Assembly (NCBI GenBank): GCA_964482765.1 | Contig: CAYZYZ010000001.1 | Coordinates: forward strand, 1 to 44,135 | Direction: 5' to 3' | Origin: an uncultured Candidatus Saccharibacteria bacterium | Lineage (GTDB): Bacteria; Patescibacteriota; CPR2_A; CG2-30-33-46; CAYZYZ01 | Length of the DNA: 44,135 nt | Part shown: positions 5,770 through 40,336 of the stretch, one piece after another | How the letters are laid out: each line of letters starts with the position of its first letter | How positions within the stretch are numbered: position 1 is the stretch's first letter | Program-made: the position numbers and the translations under genes | The notes under the pieces: model-generated | What the model was told of the DNA's origin: nothing | The model's input: the letters and a program-made list of their open reading frames with translations, nothing else | Database searches by the model: none

Positions 5770-5955
5770 AATTTAAACTCTAAATTCTAATATCTAAATC
5801 CTAAACCCCGTTAGAAATTTTTAATTTCTAATATGGGGTAAACAAATTCTAAATTCCAATGTTCTAAATTTAAAATGTTTTATTTTTTGTTTTGTAATTT
5901 GGATTTTGGTCATTGGGATTTGTTTAGAAATTAGGAATTAGAAATTAGAAATTGT
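5770..5955. repeat. Long AT-rich imperfect palindrome (family C) with conserved right arm; a family A element is inserted in its left arm
   Basis: Right arm gtcattgggatttgtttagaaattaggaattagaaattagaaatt (5909-5953). Left arm is rich in tctaaattctaat / attccaatg. Confidence 0.6.
5802..5843. repeat. Family A palindromic mini-element (degenerate right end)
   Basis: TAAA|ccccgttagaaatttttaatttctaatatgggg|TAAA. Confidence 0.7.
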
Positions 5956-5973: not shown

Positions 5974-6678
5974 TTAAACTCCTCTTATCTCCACCATCTC
6001 AAAAAAAGGCTCGGCTGCTTTTTTAAGCTCCATTAGCTCACCTATTTTGTAGGGCTTTATTTTAGTATATTCTGGATCCAATGTCTTCTCATTTCTGAAC
6101 TGTTGAATAAAGAGTCTCTTAGAGCCTTTGAGCCACTCGCCGATCTTTCTGATACCATCTTTGTCAATCAATCCCGGAACGACAGTAATCCTGAATTCAT
6201 AGTCAATTATGGAATTCCTTATTATTTTAACACTCTCCTTTATAGCATCTTTTCTTACTTTGACATCGACTACCTTTTCATATTTATCCAACGGTGCCTT
6301 TATGTCCATGGCAAAATAATCAACTTTGCCTTCTTGAATCAATTTTTTTAAACTCTTGGGATTGGTGCCATTTGTGTGCACAGCGACTTTTAATCCCAAA
6401 TTTCTTATCATCTCTACGATTTTTTCAAAACTTTTGTGAATGGTCGGCTCACCGCCCAGCATTACCACACCATCCAGCCACTTTTTCTTGGTTTCCAAAT
6501 AACTAAAGATTTTCTCATCATCCACGTCTTTCAAAGTCTGGGGATTCAAAATAAACTCCGGGTTGTAGCAGTAGTGACACCTAAAATTACAACCCGGTAA
6601 AAAAATAACTGCCGAGATCTTGCCCGGCCAGTCGATCAAAGAGGTAGGTTCAAATCCTTTTATGTCTAAAGCCATCAT
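5974..6678 (-). CDS. nrdG: Anaerobic ribonucleoside-triphosphate reductase activating protein (radical SAM)
   Basis: CNFRCHYCYN radical-SAM cluster motif, 234 aa, last gene of the nrdD operon. Confidence 0.9.
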   Translation of the reverse strand: MMALDIKGFEPTSLIDWPGKISAVIFLPGCNFRCHYCYNPEFILNPQTLKDVDDEKIFSYLETKKKWLDGVVMLGGEPTIHKSFEKIVEMIRNLGLKVAVHTNGTNPKSLKKLIQEGKVDYFAMDIKAPLDKYEKVVDVKVRKDAIKESVKIIRNSIIDYEFRITVVPGLIDKDGIRKIGEWLKGSKRLFIQQFRNEKTLDPEYTKIKPYKIGELMELKKAAEPFFEMVEIRGV

Positions 6679-9569: not shown

Positions 9570-9626
9570 TTTACCCCGTTAGATGGTCTACCCCATTAGA
9601 TTATTGCTTTTATCTAACGGGGTTTA
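9570..9626. repeat. Family A element filling the nrdR-nrdD intergenic space
   Basis: TTTA|ccccgttagatggtctaccccattagattattgcttttatctaacgggg|TTTA. The nrdR stop TAA is the complement of TTA in the right TTTA. The nrdD ATG lies one base beyond the left TTTA. Confidence 0.8.
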
Positions 9627-10163
9627 CCTTTTAGTTACCTTAGATCTTTTCTTTTTTTCCGCCCTAGGCGCCACGCCCCGACCTGTCGGGGGACCAGCCT
9701 TGGGCTGGAATCCTTTTTTCTTGAAAATTTTTAACTCCTGCTCGAAAGATTTGATGTCATCAAAAGATTTGTAGACTGAAGCGAAACGAATGTAGGCAAC
9801 TTTGTCGGTCTTTTTTAAGGCTTTTATTGCCAACTCCCCAATCTCTCTGCTCTTCACCTCGGTGTCGCAAGTGGCTTGGAGTTTTCTTTCTATGTCGGAC
9901 ACTATCTTATCTATCTGCTCTTTGGAAATCGGCCTCTTCTCGCAAGCCTTCATTATCCCGAGCTCGAGTTTGTTTCTGTCAAAACTCTCTCTTCGTCTAC
10001 CTTTCTTAATTACCAGGAGGTTGGCGAGTTCGACCCTTTCATAAGTGGTGAAACGGTTCTTACATTTCAGGCACTTCCTCCTTCTTCTAATCGCTCGGAA
10101 ATCATCAACGTCTCGCGAATCAATAACCTTGGTATCAGGAGAAAGGCAGTTGGGGCATTTCAT
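9624..10163 (-). CDS. nrdR: Transcriptional repressor NrdR with ~25-aa GC-rich C-terminal extension
   Basis: MKCPNCLSPDTKVIDSR...CLKCKNRFTTYERVE zinc ribbon plus ATP-cone. SD aaaggaggg lies upstream. Confidence 0.93.
   Translation of the reverse strand: MKCPNCLSPDTKVIDSRDVDDFRAIRRRRKCLKCKNRFTTYERVELANLLVIKKGRRRESFDRNKLELGIMKACEKRPISKEQIDKIVSDIERKLQATCDTEVKSREIGELAIKALKKTDKVAYIRFASVYKSFDDIKSFEQELKIFKKKGFQPKAGPPTGRGVAPRAEKKKRSKVTKR
9659..9708. repeat. GC-rich triple mini-hairpin module forming the nrdR C-terminal tail
   Basis: Hairpins ccgccctaggcg, ccccga-cctg-tcgggg (9676-9691) and ccagcc-ttgg-gctgg. It encodes KAGPPTGRGVAPRAE. Confidence 0.6.
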
Positions 10164-12529: not shown

Positions 12530-12638
12530 TTTACCCCGTTAGAGACAGATCGCCCCAAGGCGGTCGCCTGCCCCGTAGCTCCAAAGGATGGTATCGGGGT
12601 AGCCGCGCCTTTGGCGGGGCGGTTTCTAACGGGGTTTA
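12530..12638. repeat. Family A element, long GC-rich-interior form carrying a nested 33-nt mini-insertion
   Basis: TTTA|ccccgttagagacagatcgccccaaggcggtcg[cctgccccgtagctccaaaggatggtatcgggg]tagccgcgcctttggcggggcggtttctaacgggg|TTTA. Apart from the bracketed 33 nt and one mismatch, it is the reverse complement of 28469-28544. Confidence 0.9.
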
Positions 12639-14026: not shown

Positions 14027-14098
14027 TTTACCTCGTTAGAAAATAGCTACTTAATCTCTCTACAATCTCTTACTATACAAGCTTTCTAACGGGGTTTG
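14027..14098. repeat. Family A element (AT-rich 44-nt interior) between ftsA and ftsZ
   Basis: TTTA|cctcgttaga-44 nt-tctaacgggg|TTTG. Confidence 0.75.
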
Positions 14099-19504: not shown

Positions 19505-19635
19505 TAAAACCCCATATATCCCCAGCCTTCACCCCATTAGAAAAACGAAATATCAATCTATCGTTCCAATTGTAAAACAAAGGGATGATTTCTAACGGGA
19601 TGAACCCAGGGCTTTCGGGATTATACGGGGTAAAA
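19505..19635. repeat. Family B element with a family A element nested in its centre
   Basis: TAAAA|ccccatatatccccagcc[ttcaccccattaga-49 nt-tctaacgggatgaa]cccagggctttcgggattatacgggg|TAAAA. The inner A copy is at 19528-19604. Confidence 0.75.
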
Positions 19636-19773: not shown

Positions 19774-19813
19774 TTTACCCCGTTAGATGGTTAGTTTTAT
19801 CTAACGGGGTTTA
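19774..19813. repeat. Family A element, minimal 32-nt core form, in the 5' leader
   Basis: TTTA|ccccgttagatggttagttttatctaacgggg|TTTA. It sits between an upstream aaggagg and the functional aggag SD. Confidence 0.85.
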
Positions 19814-22893: not shown

Positions 22894-22990
22894 ACTATTT
22901 TTTCTAACTTGATTTTAAATTTAACACATAAAGGCAAAAAATTCAAAAATCCACTTCTCAGGAAATAAGAAAAAAGGCAAAAAATTAAAA

Positions 22991-23108
22991 ATGTCTAATT
23001 ACTAATTTCTAATCAACAACCAATTTTTCAATGTCCAATGCCTGAAATTATTTGGTTATTTTGTCATTGGGATTTAATTAGAAATTAGAGCAATTAGGAA
23101 TTAGTTAT
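22991..23108. repeat. Family C long AT-rich palindrome in the hisS/galT-like divergent region
   Basis: Left arm ctaattactaatttctaat...tccaatg. Right arm gtcattgggatttaattagaaattagagcaattaggaattag (23063-23104), nearly identical to 37733-37778. Confidence 0.65.
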
Positions 23109-23130
23109 TAAAACTGTCTAATATCTGATT

Positions 23131-23186
23131 ACTTGTTCACTGTTAACTGTTAACTGTTTACTGTTAACTGTTTACTGTCTTATAAT
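23131..23186 (+). repeat. ACTGTTA/ACTGTTT heptamer tandem array ending in TATAAT, 7 nt upstream of the start codon
   Basis: cttgttc actgtta actgtta actgttt actgtta actgttt actgtct tataat agacct ATG. Confidence 0.75.
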
Positions 23187-23192
23187 AGACCT

Positions 23193-24354: not shown

Positions 24355-24426
24355 TAAACCCCGTTAGAAATACGAGATATTAAATATCTATCACTCCAGC
24401 TAAAAAAAGATTTCTAACGAGGTAAA
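24355..24426. repeat. Family A element (AT-rich 44-nt interior) just past the rel stop
   Basis: TAAA|ccccgttaga-44 nt-tctaacgagg|TAAA. Confidence 0.8.
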
Positions 24427-28445: not shown

Positions 28446-28544
28446 CTAATGGGGTTAATTTAACGGGGTAAACCCCGTTAGAAACCGCCCCGCCAAAGGC
28501 GCGGCTACGACCGCCTTGGGGCGATCTGTTTCTAACGGGGTAAA
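28446..28544. repeat. Family A cluster: two solo end fragments followed by a full GC-rich-interior element
   Basis: Fragments ctaatggggtta and ttaacgggg, then TAAA|ccccgttagaaaccgccccgccaaaggcgcggctacgaccgccttggggcgatctgtttctaacgggg|TAAA (28469-28544). Confidence 0.9.
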
Positions 28545-28581: not shown

Positions 28582-28636
28582 TTCCGCCAAGGGCGGATCT
28601 CCTCCAGAGGCGGATGAGCCTTTGGCTCAAGCCTTG
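28582..28636. repeat. GC-rich hairpin modules (CCGCC-N-GGCGG type) in the secF-recJ spacer
   Basis: Hairpins tccgccaagggcgga, tcctccagaggcgga and gagcctttggctc / ccaaggcttgagcc. Confidence 0.55.
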
Positions 28637-28658
28637 GACTGAGATTAGAAATTAAAAA

Positions 28659-29567
28659 TTAGAGCTTAGAAATTTTTTTCTGTGCTCTCTTGTCGTCCCA
28701 GTTTTTCCAAACAACTAAAAATGGGCTGGCTATGAATACTGATGAATAGGTTCCGGTAATTAATCCCAAAAGCAAAGCTAAAACAAAAGTTTTTATTGTT
28801 TCGCCGCCTATTAAAAATAGAGCTAAAACTACCAAAATTATTACCAGCGAAGTATTTATTGAACGGGCAATCATCTCCAAAACGCTATCATTTACAATCT
28901 CCTCAAAGTCCTCTTTTTCGGAACGTTTTAAATTTTCCTTTATTCGGTCGAAAATAACTATGGTGTCATGAACAGAAAAGCTTATTACAGTTAAAAGGGC
29001 AGTCACAAACAGACTGTCAATCTCTGTTTTGAACAAAAGACCTAAAATAGAAAATATTCCAACAACAAACAATACATCATGAAGAATGGCCAAAACAGCG
29101 CAAACTCCATATTTCCAGGAAGCAACCGGCTTCGAAACTTTCCTAAAAGACCAACCTACATAAAGAATAATCAACAAAGAAGCAAGAGCGATTGAAATAT
29201 AAGCCTTCTCTGTAATATCTCTTGAAACTGTTGCTCCAATGGTTTCAAATTTAAGCTCTTTAACTTCTTTGCTGGCATTAATATTTTTAAACTCATCAAG
29301 TATTTTTTTATGGTCTTCCTCTTTTAAAACTTTGGTTTTGATTTTTAATTTCAAACCGTCTTTATCTATAGAAATAACATCAGCTTTAAAATTATTAAGC
29401 ACCTCTTTAACTTTCTCTTTATCTTCTATTCCTTCAATCTCCCAAAAGCTTCCTCCGGTAAAATCAAGACCCGTTTTTAGTCCCCTAAAAGCTATTCCTA
29501 AAACACTAAGGACAAAAAAGATTCCCCAGATTGTAAACCAGATTTTTCTTTTTCCGATTATGTTCAC
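28659..29567 (-). CDS. secF: Protein translocase subunit SecF
   Basis: 302 aa. GLDFTGG near the N-terminus and a C-terminal 6-TM RND-like block. Overlaps the secD stop. Confidence 0.93.
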   Translation of the reverse strand: MNIIGKRKIWFTIWGIFFVLSVLGIAFRGLKTGLDFTGGSFWEIEGIEDKEKVKEVLNNFKADVISIDKDGLKLKIKTKVLKEEDHKKILDEFKNINASKEVKELKFETIGATVSRDITEKAYISIALASLLIILYVGWSFRKVSKPVASWKYGVCAVLAILHDVLFVVGIFSILGLLFKTEIDSLFVTALLTVISFSVHDTIVIFDRIKENLKRSEKEDFEEIVNDSVLEMIARSINTSLVIILVVLALFLIGGETIKTFVLALLLGLITGTYSSVFIASPFLVVWKNWDDKRAQKKISKL

Positions 29568-32201: not shown

Positions 32202-32270
32202 TATACCCTGTTAGATAATTCTTTATAAAATTATAACAGATTATTTACTAAATACATCTAACAGGGTATT
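32202..32270. repeat. Family A variant element (CCCTGTTAGA ends)
   Basis: TATA|ccctgttaga-41 nt-tctaacaggg|TATT. Confidence 0.65.
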
Positions 32271-35253: not shown

Positions 35254-37110
35254 ATGTATGCTGAAATTTCAACAAATGCGCCTGAGCTTTTTACATATAA
35301 AATCCCTAAAAGTCTTTTGCCTAAAATCAAAATTGGTCAGTTAGTAAAAATTTCTCTCGGCAAAAGAATAAATCAGGGAATAGTATTTGAAATTACCAAA
35401 AAGAAGCCTCGTTTTAGAACCAAAGATATTCTAGAAATAATTCATCCGGAACCATTGCTTTCTTCTTACCAGGTCAAGCTGGCAAATTGGCTCTCTTTAT
35501 ATTACTTTTCATCGATTTATCAGTCTTTAAAAAATATCAAGATTGACGGCTTGGAAAAAAGTTTAGAAAATCAGCCATTAAAGCCTAAACGCTTCTATAC
35601 TCCAGTGTATAAGAGTAAAAAAGATTATAAATATAAAAGATTTATATTTTTTGGTGGAAATGAACTTTATCCAAAGATTGCTTCAAAATTCCTGAAGAAT
35701 AAAAAACAGGTTTTAATCCTCTTCCCTGATAACTTCAGTTTGGAAAAATTCTTAAACAATAATCTGTTTAAATCTAAAAAAACCTCTGTTATTACAAGCA
35801 ACCTCGCATCAAAAGAAAGGATTAAAGAGTGGTTTAGGATTAAAAACGAAGAAAGTAAACTGATTTTAGGAACAAGAACCGCAATATTCTCGCCCTTCAA
35901 AAATCTAGGGTTAATTATTTTGGATAAAGAATATGAGGATGGATACAAGCAGGAAAAAACGCCGAAATATGACTCAAAAGAAGTAGCTGAATTTTTACAA
36001 GAGCTTACTAACTGTACCTTGGTCCTGCAAACAGACATCCCGACCCTAGAAAATTACTACCGACTAAAAAATGAATACAGAATATTAAAATCCAAACTTT
36101 CAAAGAAACAAACCAAAATAATAATCGACGCCGAGCCTTTAAAGTTTTCTGTCTTAGGATCAAAAACCGAAAGCCTCATCAGGAAAAATCTTGAAGAAAA
36201 AAAACAAACAATTCTCTTTCTAAATAGAAAAGGTAGGGAGATTTTCGTATCCTGTACTGATTGCGGTTTCTCCCCCACCTGCCCTAATTGCGAGGTGCCA
36301 TTTACAACCACCGCAAATTACTTAGTGTGCAACCACTGCGGACATAAAGAAGAAATTCATTTGACCTGTAGAAAATGCCAGAGTCCGCTCATCAAAAAAA
36401 TTGGAATAGGCACTGAGAAACTCGAAGAGGAAGTTAAAAAAATATTTCCCGAAAAGAGGATTGAAAGAATTGATGAAACGACCAGAAAAACTCTAAACCC
36501 CATTAGAAATCCGCCTATTGTAAATGGCGGCAGTCGCCAGTGGCGACTTATTTCTAACGGGGTAAACAGAAAAAAAATAGAGCAAGCTGATATAATTATC
36601 GGCACCCAGATGATAAAGGGATTAGATTTTAAAAACACCGGGCTTTTGGTGTTCTTCTCAATCGACAATATGCTCAATCTTCCTTCGTATAAAGCTTTAG
36701 AGAATGCTCAAAAAATCATATCCTCACTAATTTCGAAATTACCGGAAAGGGCGCACGTTGTTATCAAAACTTCTAATCCTGAGAGTGAATTAATACAGAC
36801 TATAAAAAAGAGTGATTATCTATCATTTTTCGAAAAAGAGTTTAAAAACAGGAAAAAATTTCATTACCCGCCTTTCTTTGATTTGATCTCAATTATTTTC
36901 CCAGAGGAAAAACAAAAAGAGGTTAAGAAAGAATTAAAGAGTATCAAGAATTATGAAATTATAGGTCCTTTTAAACCTTTTCTTCCCAAAGGACGAGGCA
37001 AAAATAGAAAGATTATTGTCTTAAAAACCTCAAAAAACAGCTTTTTTTATGATAAAATATCTAAGATTAAAAAAATATCCATAACCAGAAACCCAGAATC
37101 AATTATTTAA
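35254..37110 (+). CDS. priA: Primosomal protein N' (PriA) homologue with degenerate helicase motifs and a 23-aa repeat-derived insertion
   Basis: Cys-rich region CTDCG...CPNC...CNHCG...CRKC and GTQMIKGLDF are PriA hallmarks. The positions of Walker A (FFGGNELY) and DExH (DKEY) are degenerate. Confidence 0.85.
   Translation: MYAEISTNAPELFTYKIPKSLLPKIKIGQLVKISLGKRINQGIVFEITKKKPRFRTKDILEIIHPEPLLSSYQVKLANWLSLYYFSSIYQSLKNIKIDGLEKSLENQPLKPKRFYTPVYKSKKDYKYKRFIFFGGNELYPKIASKFLKNKKQVLILFPDNFSLEKFLNNNLFKSKKTSVITSNLASKERIKEWFRIKNEESKLILGTRTAIFSPFKNLGLIILDKEYEDGYKQEKTPKYDSKEVAEFLQELTNCTLVLQTDIPTLENYYRLKNEYRILKSKLSKKQTKIIIDAEPLKFSVLGSKTESLIRKNLEEKKQTILFLNRKGREIFVSCTDCGFSPTCPNCEVPFTTTANYLVCNHCGHKEEIHLTCRKCQSPLIKKIGIGTEKLEEEVKKIFPEKRIERIDETTRKTLNPIRNPPIVNGGSRQWRLISNGVNRKKIEQADIIIGTQMIKGLDFKNTGLLVFFSIDNMLNLPSYKALENAQKIISSLISKLPERAHVVIKTSNPESELIQTIKKSDYLSFFEKEFKNRKKFHYPPFFDLISIIFPEEKQKEVKKELKSIKNYEIIGPFKPFLPKGRGKNRKIIVLKTSKNSFFYDKISKIKKISITRNPESII
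36494..36566. repeat. Family A element inserted in frame inside priA
   Basis: TAAA|ccccattagaaatccgcctattgtaaatggcggcagtcgccagtggcgacttatttctaacgggg|TAAA. The 65-nt core plus one 4-nt flank totals 69 nt, or 23 codons. Confidence 0.85.
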
Positions 37111-37644: not shown

Positions 37645-37780
37645 ATTACTAATTAACCTAATGTCTAATTAACCTAAATAATTACCAATGACCAATTACC
37701 AATGACCAAAATTTAGACATTAGATATTCAAACATTGGGATTTGATTAGAAATTAGAGCAATCAGAAATTAGAAATTTAT
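37645..37780. repeat. Family C long AT-rich palindrome between def and fmt
   Basis: Internal direct repeats taattaaccta x2 and attaccaatgacca x2. Right arm cattgggatttgattagaaattagagcaatcagaaattagaaattt (37733-37778). Confidence 0.65.
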
Positions 37781-37811
37781 ATTCCGCTAGATCTAATTAA
37801 ATTATAGAAAA

Positions 37812-40296: not shown

Positions 40297-40336
40297 TAAA
40301 CCCCGTTAGATAGTTAGTTTTATCTAATGGGGTAAA
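40297..40336. repeat. Family A element (minimal form) overlapping the last codons and stop of infB
   Basis: TAAA|ccccgttagatagttagttttatctaatgggg|TAAA. The infB end ...agt tta ccc cat tag (SLPH stop) is read from the element terminus. Confidence 0.85.

Follow-up and report, generated by a model that had tools for sequence, protein, structure and literature searches.

A small palindromic element inserted in frame in the priA gene of an uncultured Candidatus Saccharibacteria bacterium, and the repeat family to which it belongs

A palindromic insertion in priA

We analysed a 44,135-nt stretch of DNA from an uncultured groundwater-dwelling Candidatus Saccharibacteria bacterium (the window, meaning this whole stretch), in which a 65-nt palindromic element lies within the gene for PriA. 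The host gene is an uninterrupted open reading frame (ORF) of 618 codons on the forward strand (35254-37110). Its 618-aa product matches NCBIfam TIGR00595 (E 3.6e-93; 312.8 bits, above the cut-off of 230) and PF17764 (PriA_3primeBD; E 3.9e-18), and a sequence search of solved structures matched it to PDB PriA chains at E 5e-55. The element core occupies positions 36498-36562 and is bordered on both sides by TAAA, the full order being TAAA-CCCCATTAGAAAT-CCGCC-TATTGTAAAT-GGCGG-C-AGTCGCC-AGT-GGCGACT-T-ATTTCTAACGGGG-TAAA (Table 1). The two 13-nt ends, CCCCATTAGAAAT and ATTTCTAACGGGG, are complementary at 12 of 13 positions. Folded as a single strand, a 91-nt stretch forms a Y-shaped junction of -33.4 kcal/mol, compared to -16.2 +/- 2.9 kcal/mol for shuffled sequences (z -5.8; none of 200 shuffles as stable). 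The GC content of the element is 52%, compared to 32% for the priA gene.

Core and one 4-nt flank together add 69 nt, or 23 codons, so the downstream priA frame is kept. The frame in use is the only one on the forward strand without stops across the insert, and the inserted peptide, LNPIRNPPIVNGGSRQWRLISNG(V), is flanked by RIDETTRKT on its N-terminal side and NRKKIEQADIIIGTQMIKGLDF on its C-terminal side. In these respects the sequence agrees with a preliminary description of this DNA, which had placed a 65-nt core plus one copy of a 4-nt flank between the DETTRK segment and the GTQMIKGLDF helicase motif without a break in the frame. The flanking repeat suggested there also holds up, as codon alignment and the flanks of the wider repeat family (see below) show TAAA acting as a true target-site duplication (TSD).

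A search of 5.8 billion proteins yielded 11 members of the clade to which this PriA belongs (36-60% identity, 587-602 aa). In the alignment, all 11 of these nearest homologues have a gap of exactly 23 columns opposite the insert. The two closest of them lie on loci L085 and L086, which have the gene order of the window (radical SAM-Memo/LigB-AMMECR1-hypothetical-priA-def, with fmt next in L086; the L085 contig stops after def), and their priA genes are therefore orthologues of the window gene. Each locus carries one intergenic copy of the repeat family and none in priA, and the homologous 23-aa segment, for which an alignment had been proposed in the preliminary description, was found in neither, so that the comparison leaves the insertion reading of that description standing. 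The window codons at the junction read ACT C-TAAA-C(CCC...GGGG TAAA C)AG. When the element and one TAAA are taken out, the junction reads RKT-LN-RKKIEQAD, collinear with KKS-IN-FKEAEKAD of L085. Likewise, deletion of 36498-36566 in silico leaves a 595-aa ORF that reads ...DETTRKTLNRKKIEQADIIIGTQM and is collinear with the orthologues. A search of species representatives returned one clade member (L005), with no family copies in its 21 kb.

The filled priA allele was recovered base-for-base identical in four other assemblies, from four samples (JGI 3300025021, 3300004239 and 3300025868; ENA ERZ27293393), which rules out a one-off assembly artefact. It is the sole allele among the five assemblies. 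The connection that holds the insert does vary in length among PriAs, canonical PriAs being 7 residues longer here than the clade, and assemblers can be misled by repeats. Both facts lend some weight to the idea that nothing was inserted and that the segment is either a native loop specific to this lineage or a repeat-driven assembly chimera. However, neither would account for family-specific inverted ends with a duplicated TAAA, for a segment that is a GC outlier and exactly missing from syntenic orthologues, or for an identical segment, set between unique flanks, in five independent assemblies. We regard a native loop or chimera as close to excluded. The priA segment 36494-36566 is an insertion of a mobile palindromic element.

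A dispersed family with the properties of a small transposon

We counted the end motif CCCCRTTAGA 29 times in the window, where 4.15 were expected, and none of 100 shuffles reached this number. At least 11 family elements of 30-101 nt are present, and all except the priA copy are intergenic or at gene ends (Table 1).

Table 1. Components of the priA element and other copies of the repeat family in the window.
Feature	Position	Strand	Context or basis
Left target-site duplication TAAA	36494-36497	+	Nucleotides 2-3 of the Leu414 codon and 1-2 of the Asn415 codon; orthologue L085 has A-TAAA-T at the homologous codon positions
Left terminal inverted repeat CCCCATTAGAAAT	36498-36510	+	One G>A relative to the family consensus CCCCGTTAGAAAT (298 element ends)
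Internal hairpin 1, CCGCC-TATTGTAAAT-GGCGG	36511-36530	+	Single-strand fold
Internal hairpin 2, AGTCGCC-AGT-GGCGACT	36532-36548	+	Fold; homologous element L146:386 has AGCCACC-TTGG-GGCGGCT
Right terminal inverted repeat ATTTCTAACGGGG	36550-36562	+	Sequence; 298-end consensus
Right target-site duplication TAAA	36563-36566	+	Codon-level comparison with orthologues
33-nt mini element, degenerate right end	5806-5838		TAAA/TAAA flanks; intergenic
Extra unpaired left end (9574-9583) and 32-nt mini element	9574-9622		TTTA/TTTA flanks; nrdD start codon (9568) on one side, stop of ORF 9624-10163 on the other
101-nt copy, consisting of the 68-nt GC-rich type and a 33-nt internal addition	12534-12634		TTTA/TTTA flanks; intergenic
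64-nt copy, AT-rich interior	14031-14094		Between ftsZ and ftsA
69-nt copy, AT-rich interior, degenerate right end	19532-19600		Intergenic
32-nt mini element	19778-19809		TTTA/TTTA flanks; intergenic
64-nt copy	24359-24422		TAAA/TAAA flanks; directly 3' of the relA/spoT stop
68-nt copy, GC-rich two-hairpin interior, architecture as in the priA copy	28473-28540		TAAA/TAAA flanks; between recJ and secF
Probable diverged copy, 61 nt, ends CCCTGTTAGA/TCTAACAGGG	32206-32266		Intergenic
32-nt mini element	40301-40332		3' end of infB (infB on the minus strand); TAG within the terminal repeat ends the protein

Public metagenome contigs were scanned for paired ends, which gave at least 120 loci. The resulting family set comprises 156 elements from the window and loci L085-L206 (788 kb of loci; contig GC 0.29-0.57). 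Elements are 29-110 nt long, with no room for a transposase gene. The consensus of 298 ends is the 13-nt CCCCGTTAGAAAT; our search pattern did not require positions 12-13, yet both are conserved. Beyond the ends, the interior is unconserved.

Exact 4-nt direct repeats flank 96 of the 156 copies, while flanks of 3 or 5 nt match in only 2-3. The flanking sequences include TAAA/TTTA (46 copies), TGAA/TTCA (17), TCAA/TTGA (12) and CAAG/CTTG (6). Exact 4-nt flanks of varied sequence are the signature of cut-and-paste insertion, here with a 4-bp duplication at T-W-W-A sites. With its small size, terminal inverted repeats (TIRs), TSD, numerous dispersed copies and sites that are empty in relatives, the element has the behaviour of a small non-autonomous transposon, a so-called MITE (miniature inverted-repeat transposable element), in all respects that can be tested from sequence.

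Several other origins were considered. Rfam, searched with the whole window at the gathering threshold and with the locus at E up to 10, returned no relevant family; weak CRISPR-DR matches (E 0.28-6.2) all lie outside the element, which is not a CRISPR repeat. A scan of the window for tRNA and tmRNA genes found none. Only two matches to the family were on viral contigs, so carriage by phages is no feature of it, and annotated plasmids and phages were without meaningful match to the element. In the literature, the element ends and the encoded peptide ends led to unrelated primers or to nothing, and no account of in-frame MITEs in metagenome-assembled genomes was found. The repeat family is widespread and apparently undescribed.

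Some individual copies deserve mention. The copy at 12534-12634 is that at 28473-28540 in reversed orientation, with a hairpin-forming addition of 33 nt, a multiple of three. In related 68-nt copies of other organisms (L132:2007, L177:613), the changes within the hairpins are apparently compensatory. The TAA stop of ORF 9624-10163 falls within the TTTA/TAAA flank of a family copy (9574-9626). The window IF-2 ends in ...RSLPH* through the TAG of a mini element, where relatives end in ...EEKIRSL*; its homologues P0123 (...RSLPC) and P0128 (...RSLPSI) may have similar insertions. At L164, three tandem units start at 6002, 6115 and 6228, spaced by 113 nt and each beginning with TCAA and CCCCGTTAGAAATTCAGGGTAAATC; together they may form a tandem array of family origin.

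Proposed read-through of the element

We propose that a 65-bp MITE-like element transposed into the TAAA that spans the Leu414 and Asn415 codons of priA and duplicated it, probably by means of a DDE-type transposase acting in trans. In the phase xTA-AAC-CCC-RTT-AGA-AAT...ATT-TCT-AAC-GGG-GTA-AAx, the terminal repeats and the interior of the priA copy are free of stops. A stop-free phase in a kept frame means that the ribosome would read through the element, and PriA would gain a 23-residue loop, (L)NPIRNPPIVNGGSRQWRLISNG(V). The effect on PriA function would have been near-neutral, and the allele would have survived because the loop falls in a tolerant, disordered surface connection of helicase lobe 2.

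An AlphaFold2 model is consistent with this placement. The window PriA shares with PriA of E. coli and K. pneumoniae (4NL4, 6DCR, 6DGD, 8FAK) the 3'BD, both RecA-like helicase lobes, the Cys-rich zinc region and the C-terminal domain, and the model (mean predicted local distance difference test score, pLDDT, 79.9; predicted template modelling score, pTM, 0.83) matches the E. coli and Klebsiella structures at template modelling (TM) scores of 0.73-0.76. The 23-aa insert is unique to the PriA of the window organism. In the model it lies in helicase lobe 2, between the R-I-D strand and the helix preceding the GTQM motif. The model has three segments with pLDDT below 50, and residues 411-436 make up one of them (means of 33, 25 and 44 over 10-residue blocks), with no secondary structure. 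Structure prediction, which had been suggested along with the alignment, thus maps the insert to a low-confidence, predicted disordered loop, and it is likely that the insert forms a surface loop where extra residues are tolerated.

An open frame across the element is not peculiar to priA. Counting an element as read through when an ORF has at least 40 codons on both sides of it, 25 of the 156 elements are read through, and 24 of these 25 satisfy (length + 4) mod 3 = 0. On both strands, two of the three frames of the 13-nt ends are free of stops, and the third has TAG and TAA within the terminal repeats. Two frames are in use: the one found in PriA, xNPVR(N/S/K)...(I/T)SNGVx, and FTPLE...FLTG. 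An in-frame copy on L146, VDPVRNPPSFGVAAATLGRLISNGVD, falls into one cluster with the priA element. Conserved genes that host in-frame copies encode CCA-adding/poly(A) polymerase, CinA, a CDC48-type AAA ATPase, PrmC and an epimerase; ComEC, a polyprenyl synthase and a glycogen-debranching enzyme are further hosts, named by inspection of ORF translations only. In the CDC48-type ATPase (L144, 3834-3862), a 29-nt mini element that is essentially two ends adds 11 codons (ARPVRNGISNGVN). It sits between the first AAA domain and the lid, and its flanks, TTTA and CGAG, form no direct repeat.

In the formate dehydrogenase alpha subunit (L176, about 2000-2300; proteins P0241-P0360), two inserts of the family are separated by about 50 residues. 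Of 120 homologues, whose base length is 891 aa, 13 have insert A, insert B or both. These inserts stay in frame across homologues that are 77-83% identical, while the insert peptides themselves have diverged in sequence. Such in-frame persistence argues that insert-bearing proteins are made and kept. Named relatives with this enzyme belong to Thermodesulfobacteriota and Chloroflexota, phyla other than that of the window lineage.

The whole-codon rule also bears on whether the element might be lost from the transcript or from the translated protein, as an intron or intein would be, to leave a mature PriA without the insert. The RNA fold is compact and brings the two flanks together, which speaks for such a process. 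However, whole-codon length in 24 of 25 intragenic copies is a requirement of read-through and not of splicing. Moreover, 65 nt (23 aa) is far below the size of known self-splicing introns or inteins, no ribozyme or intron was matched in Rfam at either threshold, and no intein motifs or Pfam matches were found. We therefore consider removal extremely improbable.

The preference for whole codons extends beyond the copies within genes. Across the family, 96 of 156 elements have a length that, with 4 added, is divisible by three. When copies are grouped at 70% interior identity, the rule holds in 60 of 94 clusters (binomial p 1.5e-9), and it is still seen in clusters without any read-through member (43 of 75; p 1.7e-5). 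Copies not read through by a long ORF have 2.54 of 4 frames open, compared to 2.23 +/- 0.11 in shuffled interiors, a modest effect that we do not lean on. The length bias could reflect selection for harmless insertion, or lengths could be inherited from founders. We offer as a tentative suggestion, somewhat short of an even chance, that the priA insert is one case of an undescribed, cross-phylum MITE superfamily that was built or filtered for read-through, has codon-quantised lengths and has repeatedly colonised conserved genes of uncultured subsurface bacteria. If so, the superfamily would be a free-living counterpart of the Rickettsia palindromic element (RPE) phenomenon on a far wider phylogenetic scale.

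Several observations weigh against the proposal of a MITE insertion read through as a tolerated PriA loop. A random stretch of 23 codons is free of stops about one time in three, so the open insert by itself says little about function. In the 788 kb of loci, no autonomous partner was seen, whether as end pairs 400-4000 bp apart with matching flanks or as unpaired ends; the candidate end pairs enclose ordinary genes (a P-type ATPase fragment, a pilin-like protein and a CBS-domain protein) and were rejected as autonomous insertion sequences. An empty-site allele of the same species, searched for in metagenome contigs as an exact 32-mer over the restored junction, gave no matches, and the closest PriA, merely 60% identical, is too distant to date the insertion. 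Finally, all 12 clade PriAs are without the canonical motifs: GSGKT of Walker A is replaced by GG--NE, DEEH of Walker B by DKEY and GRAGR of motif VI by KLPER. This loss may mean that constraint on lobe 2 is unusual and relaxed in the clade.

The motif changes raise the question of whether the insertion is real but the protein crippled, so that priA would have become a pseudogene of recent date, or a remnant that the cell can do without, with a frame that is open by chance. The winged-helix domain, present in PriA of E. coli and K. pneumoniae, is missing from the whole clade, the best structural match of the model is the WH-deletion construct 6DCR, and Pfam DEAD and Helicase_C domains are absent from the precomputed matches of the clade. 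Judging by its motifs, the whole clade looks ATPase-dead; the 3'BD and the C-terminal domain have been kept along with the zinc-binding Cys. Points in favour of decay are the earlier loss of DEEH, of the lysine of Walker A and of the arginines of motif VI, the position of the insert within helicase lobe 2, and a single open forward frame, with about a one-in-three chance that such an insert is stop-free.

However, the 618-codon ORF is otherwise intact at 32% GC, where stops arise easily, and the clade retains 75 invariant columns that include all eight zinc-binding Cys. In addition, the insert falls in the length-variable loop of PriAs, one identical allele is found in all five assemblies, and other family members stay in frame over long divergence. 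E. coli PriA K230R is helicase-dead and supports primosome assembly nonetheless; loss of ATPase activity therefore need not equal loss of function. We consider a crippled PriA unlikely.

A further alternative is that the element has been co-opted, either because a hairpin in the priA mRNA regulates translation or stability, or because the loop now serves some purpose in PriA. Co-option is favoured by the high stability of the three-way-junction fold and by the two-hairpin architecture, which other copies of the family repeat with different sequences, and MITE RNA hairpins are known as targets of RNase III and of mRNA-stability control (PMC2229807). On the other side, the fold matches no Rfam family, the loop is predicted to be disordered, eleven homologues do without the insert, and family interiors are otherwise unconserved. 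Co-option thus appears less probable still, and very unlikely overall. Taken as a whole, insertion of a MITE at TAAA with the frame kept and the element read through as a tolerated loop of PriA is, in our judgement, highly probable.

Known elements and genomic context

In bacteria, fusion of MITEs in frame with genes has been described for ERIC, the 107-bp form of Correia, YPAL, QMITE1 and Anabaena MITEs, and most markedly for RPEs (Ogata et al. 2000, 2002, reviewed in PMC2229807 and PMC10969869). In the case of RPEs, a guanylate kinase with such an insert proved to be translated and active (PMC2229807, PMC10969869). The preliminary description had called the priA insert the same phenomenon as RPEs in an unrelated element family. 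The likeness of phenomenon stands, but in-frame MITE fusions are not limited to Rickettsia in the literature (PMC10969869, PMC2229807).

Both RPEs and the present elements are palindromic repeats with inverted ends, lie in frame within conserved protein genes and place their peptides where the fold is compatible with them. In both cases the family is also intergenic and has many unrelated host genes. They differ in that the priA element is 65 nt long, compared to 105-146 bp for RPEs, and that its family has a clear 4-bp TSD, which is uncertain for RPEs. Further differences are the family ends CCCCGTTAGAAAT and the hosts, which are uncultured free-living or aquifer lineages of several phyla as opposed to Rickettsia. 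Finally, the unconserved interior leaves no family-specific peptide beyond the NPVRN and ISNGV ends.

NCBIfam holds domain models of RPEs. Searched against NCBIfam and Pfam at E up to 10, the insert peptide matched no family (RPE included, if present), and none was matched at the insert within full-length PriA; no direct alignment with RPE DNA was made. The claim that the two families are unrelated is consistent with this result, with the difference in length and with the different host. In its effect the priA insert resembles an RPE, but on the grounds of size, host, ends, 4-bp duplication, unconserved interior and profile searches it is not one.

ERIC/IRU (127 bp), Correia/NEMIS (107 bp), YPAL, QMITE1 and the Anabaena MITEs resemble our family in being small, non-autonomous and mostly intergenic, with TIRs and TSDs, and open-frame variants of them are sometimes read through within genes (PMC2229807, PMC10969869). 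However, these elements duplicate TA or other targets, are 100-170 bp long and are each limited to one genus or family, whereas the family of the priA element is 29-110 nt long, duplicates 4 bp at a T-W-W-A target and has the same 13-nt ends in contigs of 29-57% GC. REP/BIME sequences (associated with RAYT, IS200/IS605-like; PMC3733652, PMC2817692) are also short, abundant, hairpin-forming palindromes, but are 20-40 nt long and extragenic, with a GTAG or CGTC tag and no TSD. An assignment of the priA element to this class was rejected, given its CCCC.../...GGGG ends without tags, its 4-bp duplication and its intragenic site.

The priA case joins the documented in-frame MITE fusions (RPE, ERIC, Correia), and the family-wide pattern is the more interesting lead. 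As an individual case, priA illustrates cleanly how selfish DNA in nature can extend a core replication protein by a peptide and leave that protein undestroyed; the unoccupied site, the duplicated target and a reason in the structure can all be seen. The family as a whole offers, in conserved enzymes of uncultured lineages, dozens of independent pairs with and without an insert, and with such pairs it becomes a testable question how often mobile palindromes seed new protein loops. On the practical side, such inserts inflate or distort automated annotation and marker-gene alignments in metagenome-assembled genomes.

The rest of the window is ordinary chromosome, with genes for IleRS, NrdD, RelA/SpoT, RecJ, SecD, HisRS, FtsZ, FtsA, IF-2, PriA, Def and Fmt (def and fmt were assigned from the gene order common to L085 and L086). 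Window IF-2 and PriA group with the unclassified 'bacterium CG2_30_33_46' and 'CG_4_10_14_0_2_um_filter_33_32', and the next IF-2 matches, about 50% identical, are mainly from Bacillota.

It should also be noted that the window contains a second, unrelated set of repeats, apparently between ORFs, at 5912-5953, 22979-23131, 28634-28678 and 37674-37799, with further positions at 1673-1715 and 23129-23189. These repeats are built from ATTAGAAATTAG-like and CATTGGGATTT motifs. A tandem motif of the ACAGTTAACAG type is also present, with inverted copies 21 kb apart.

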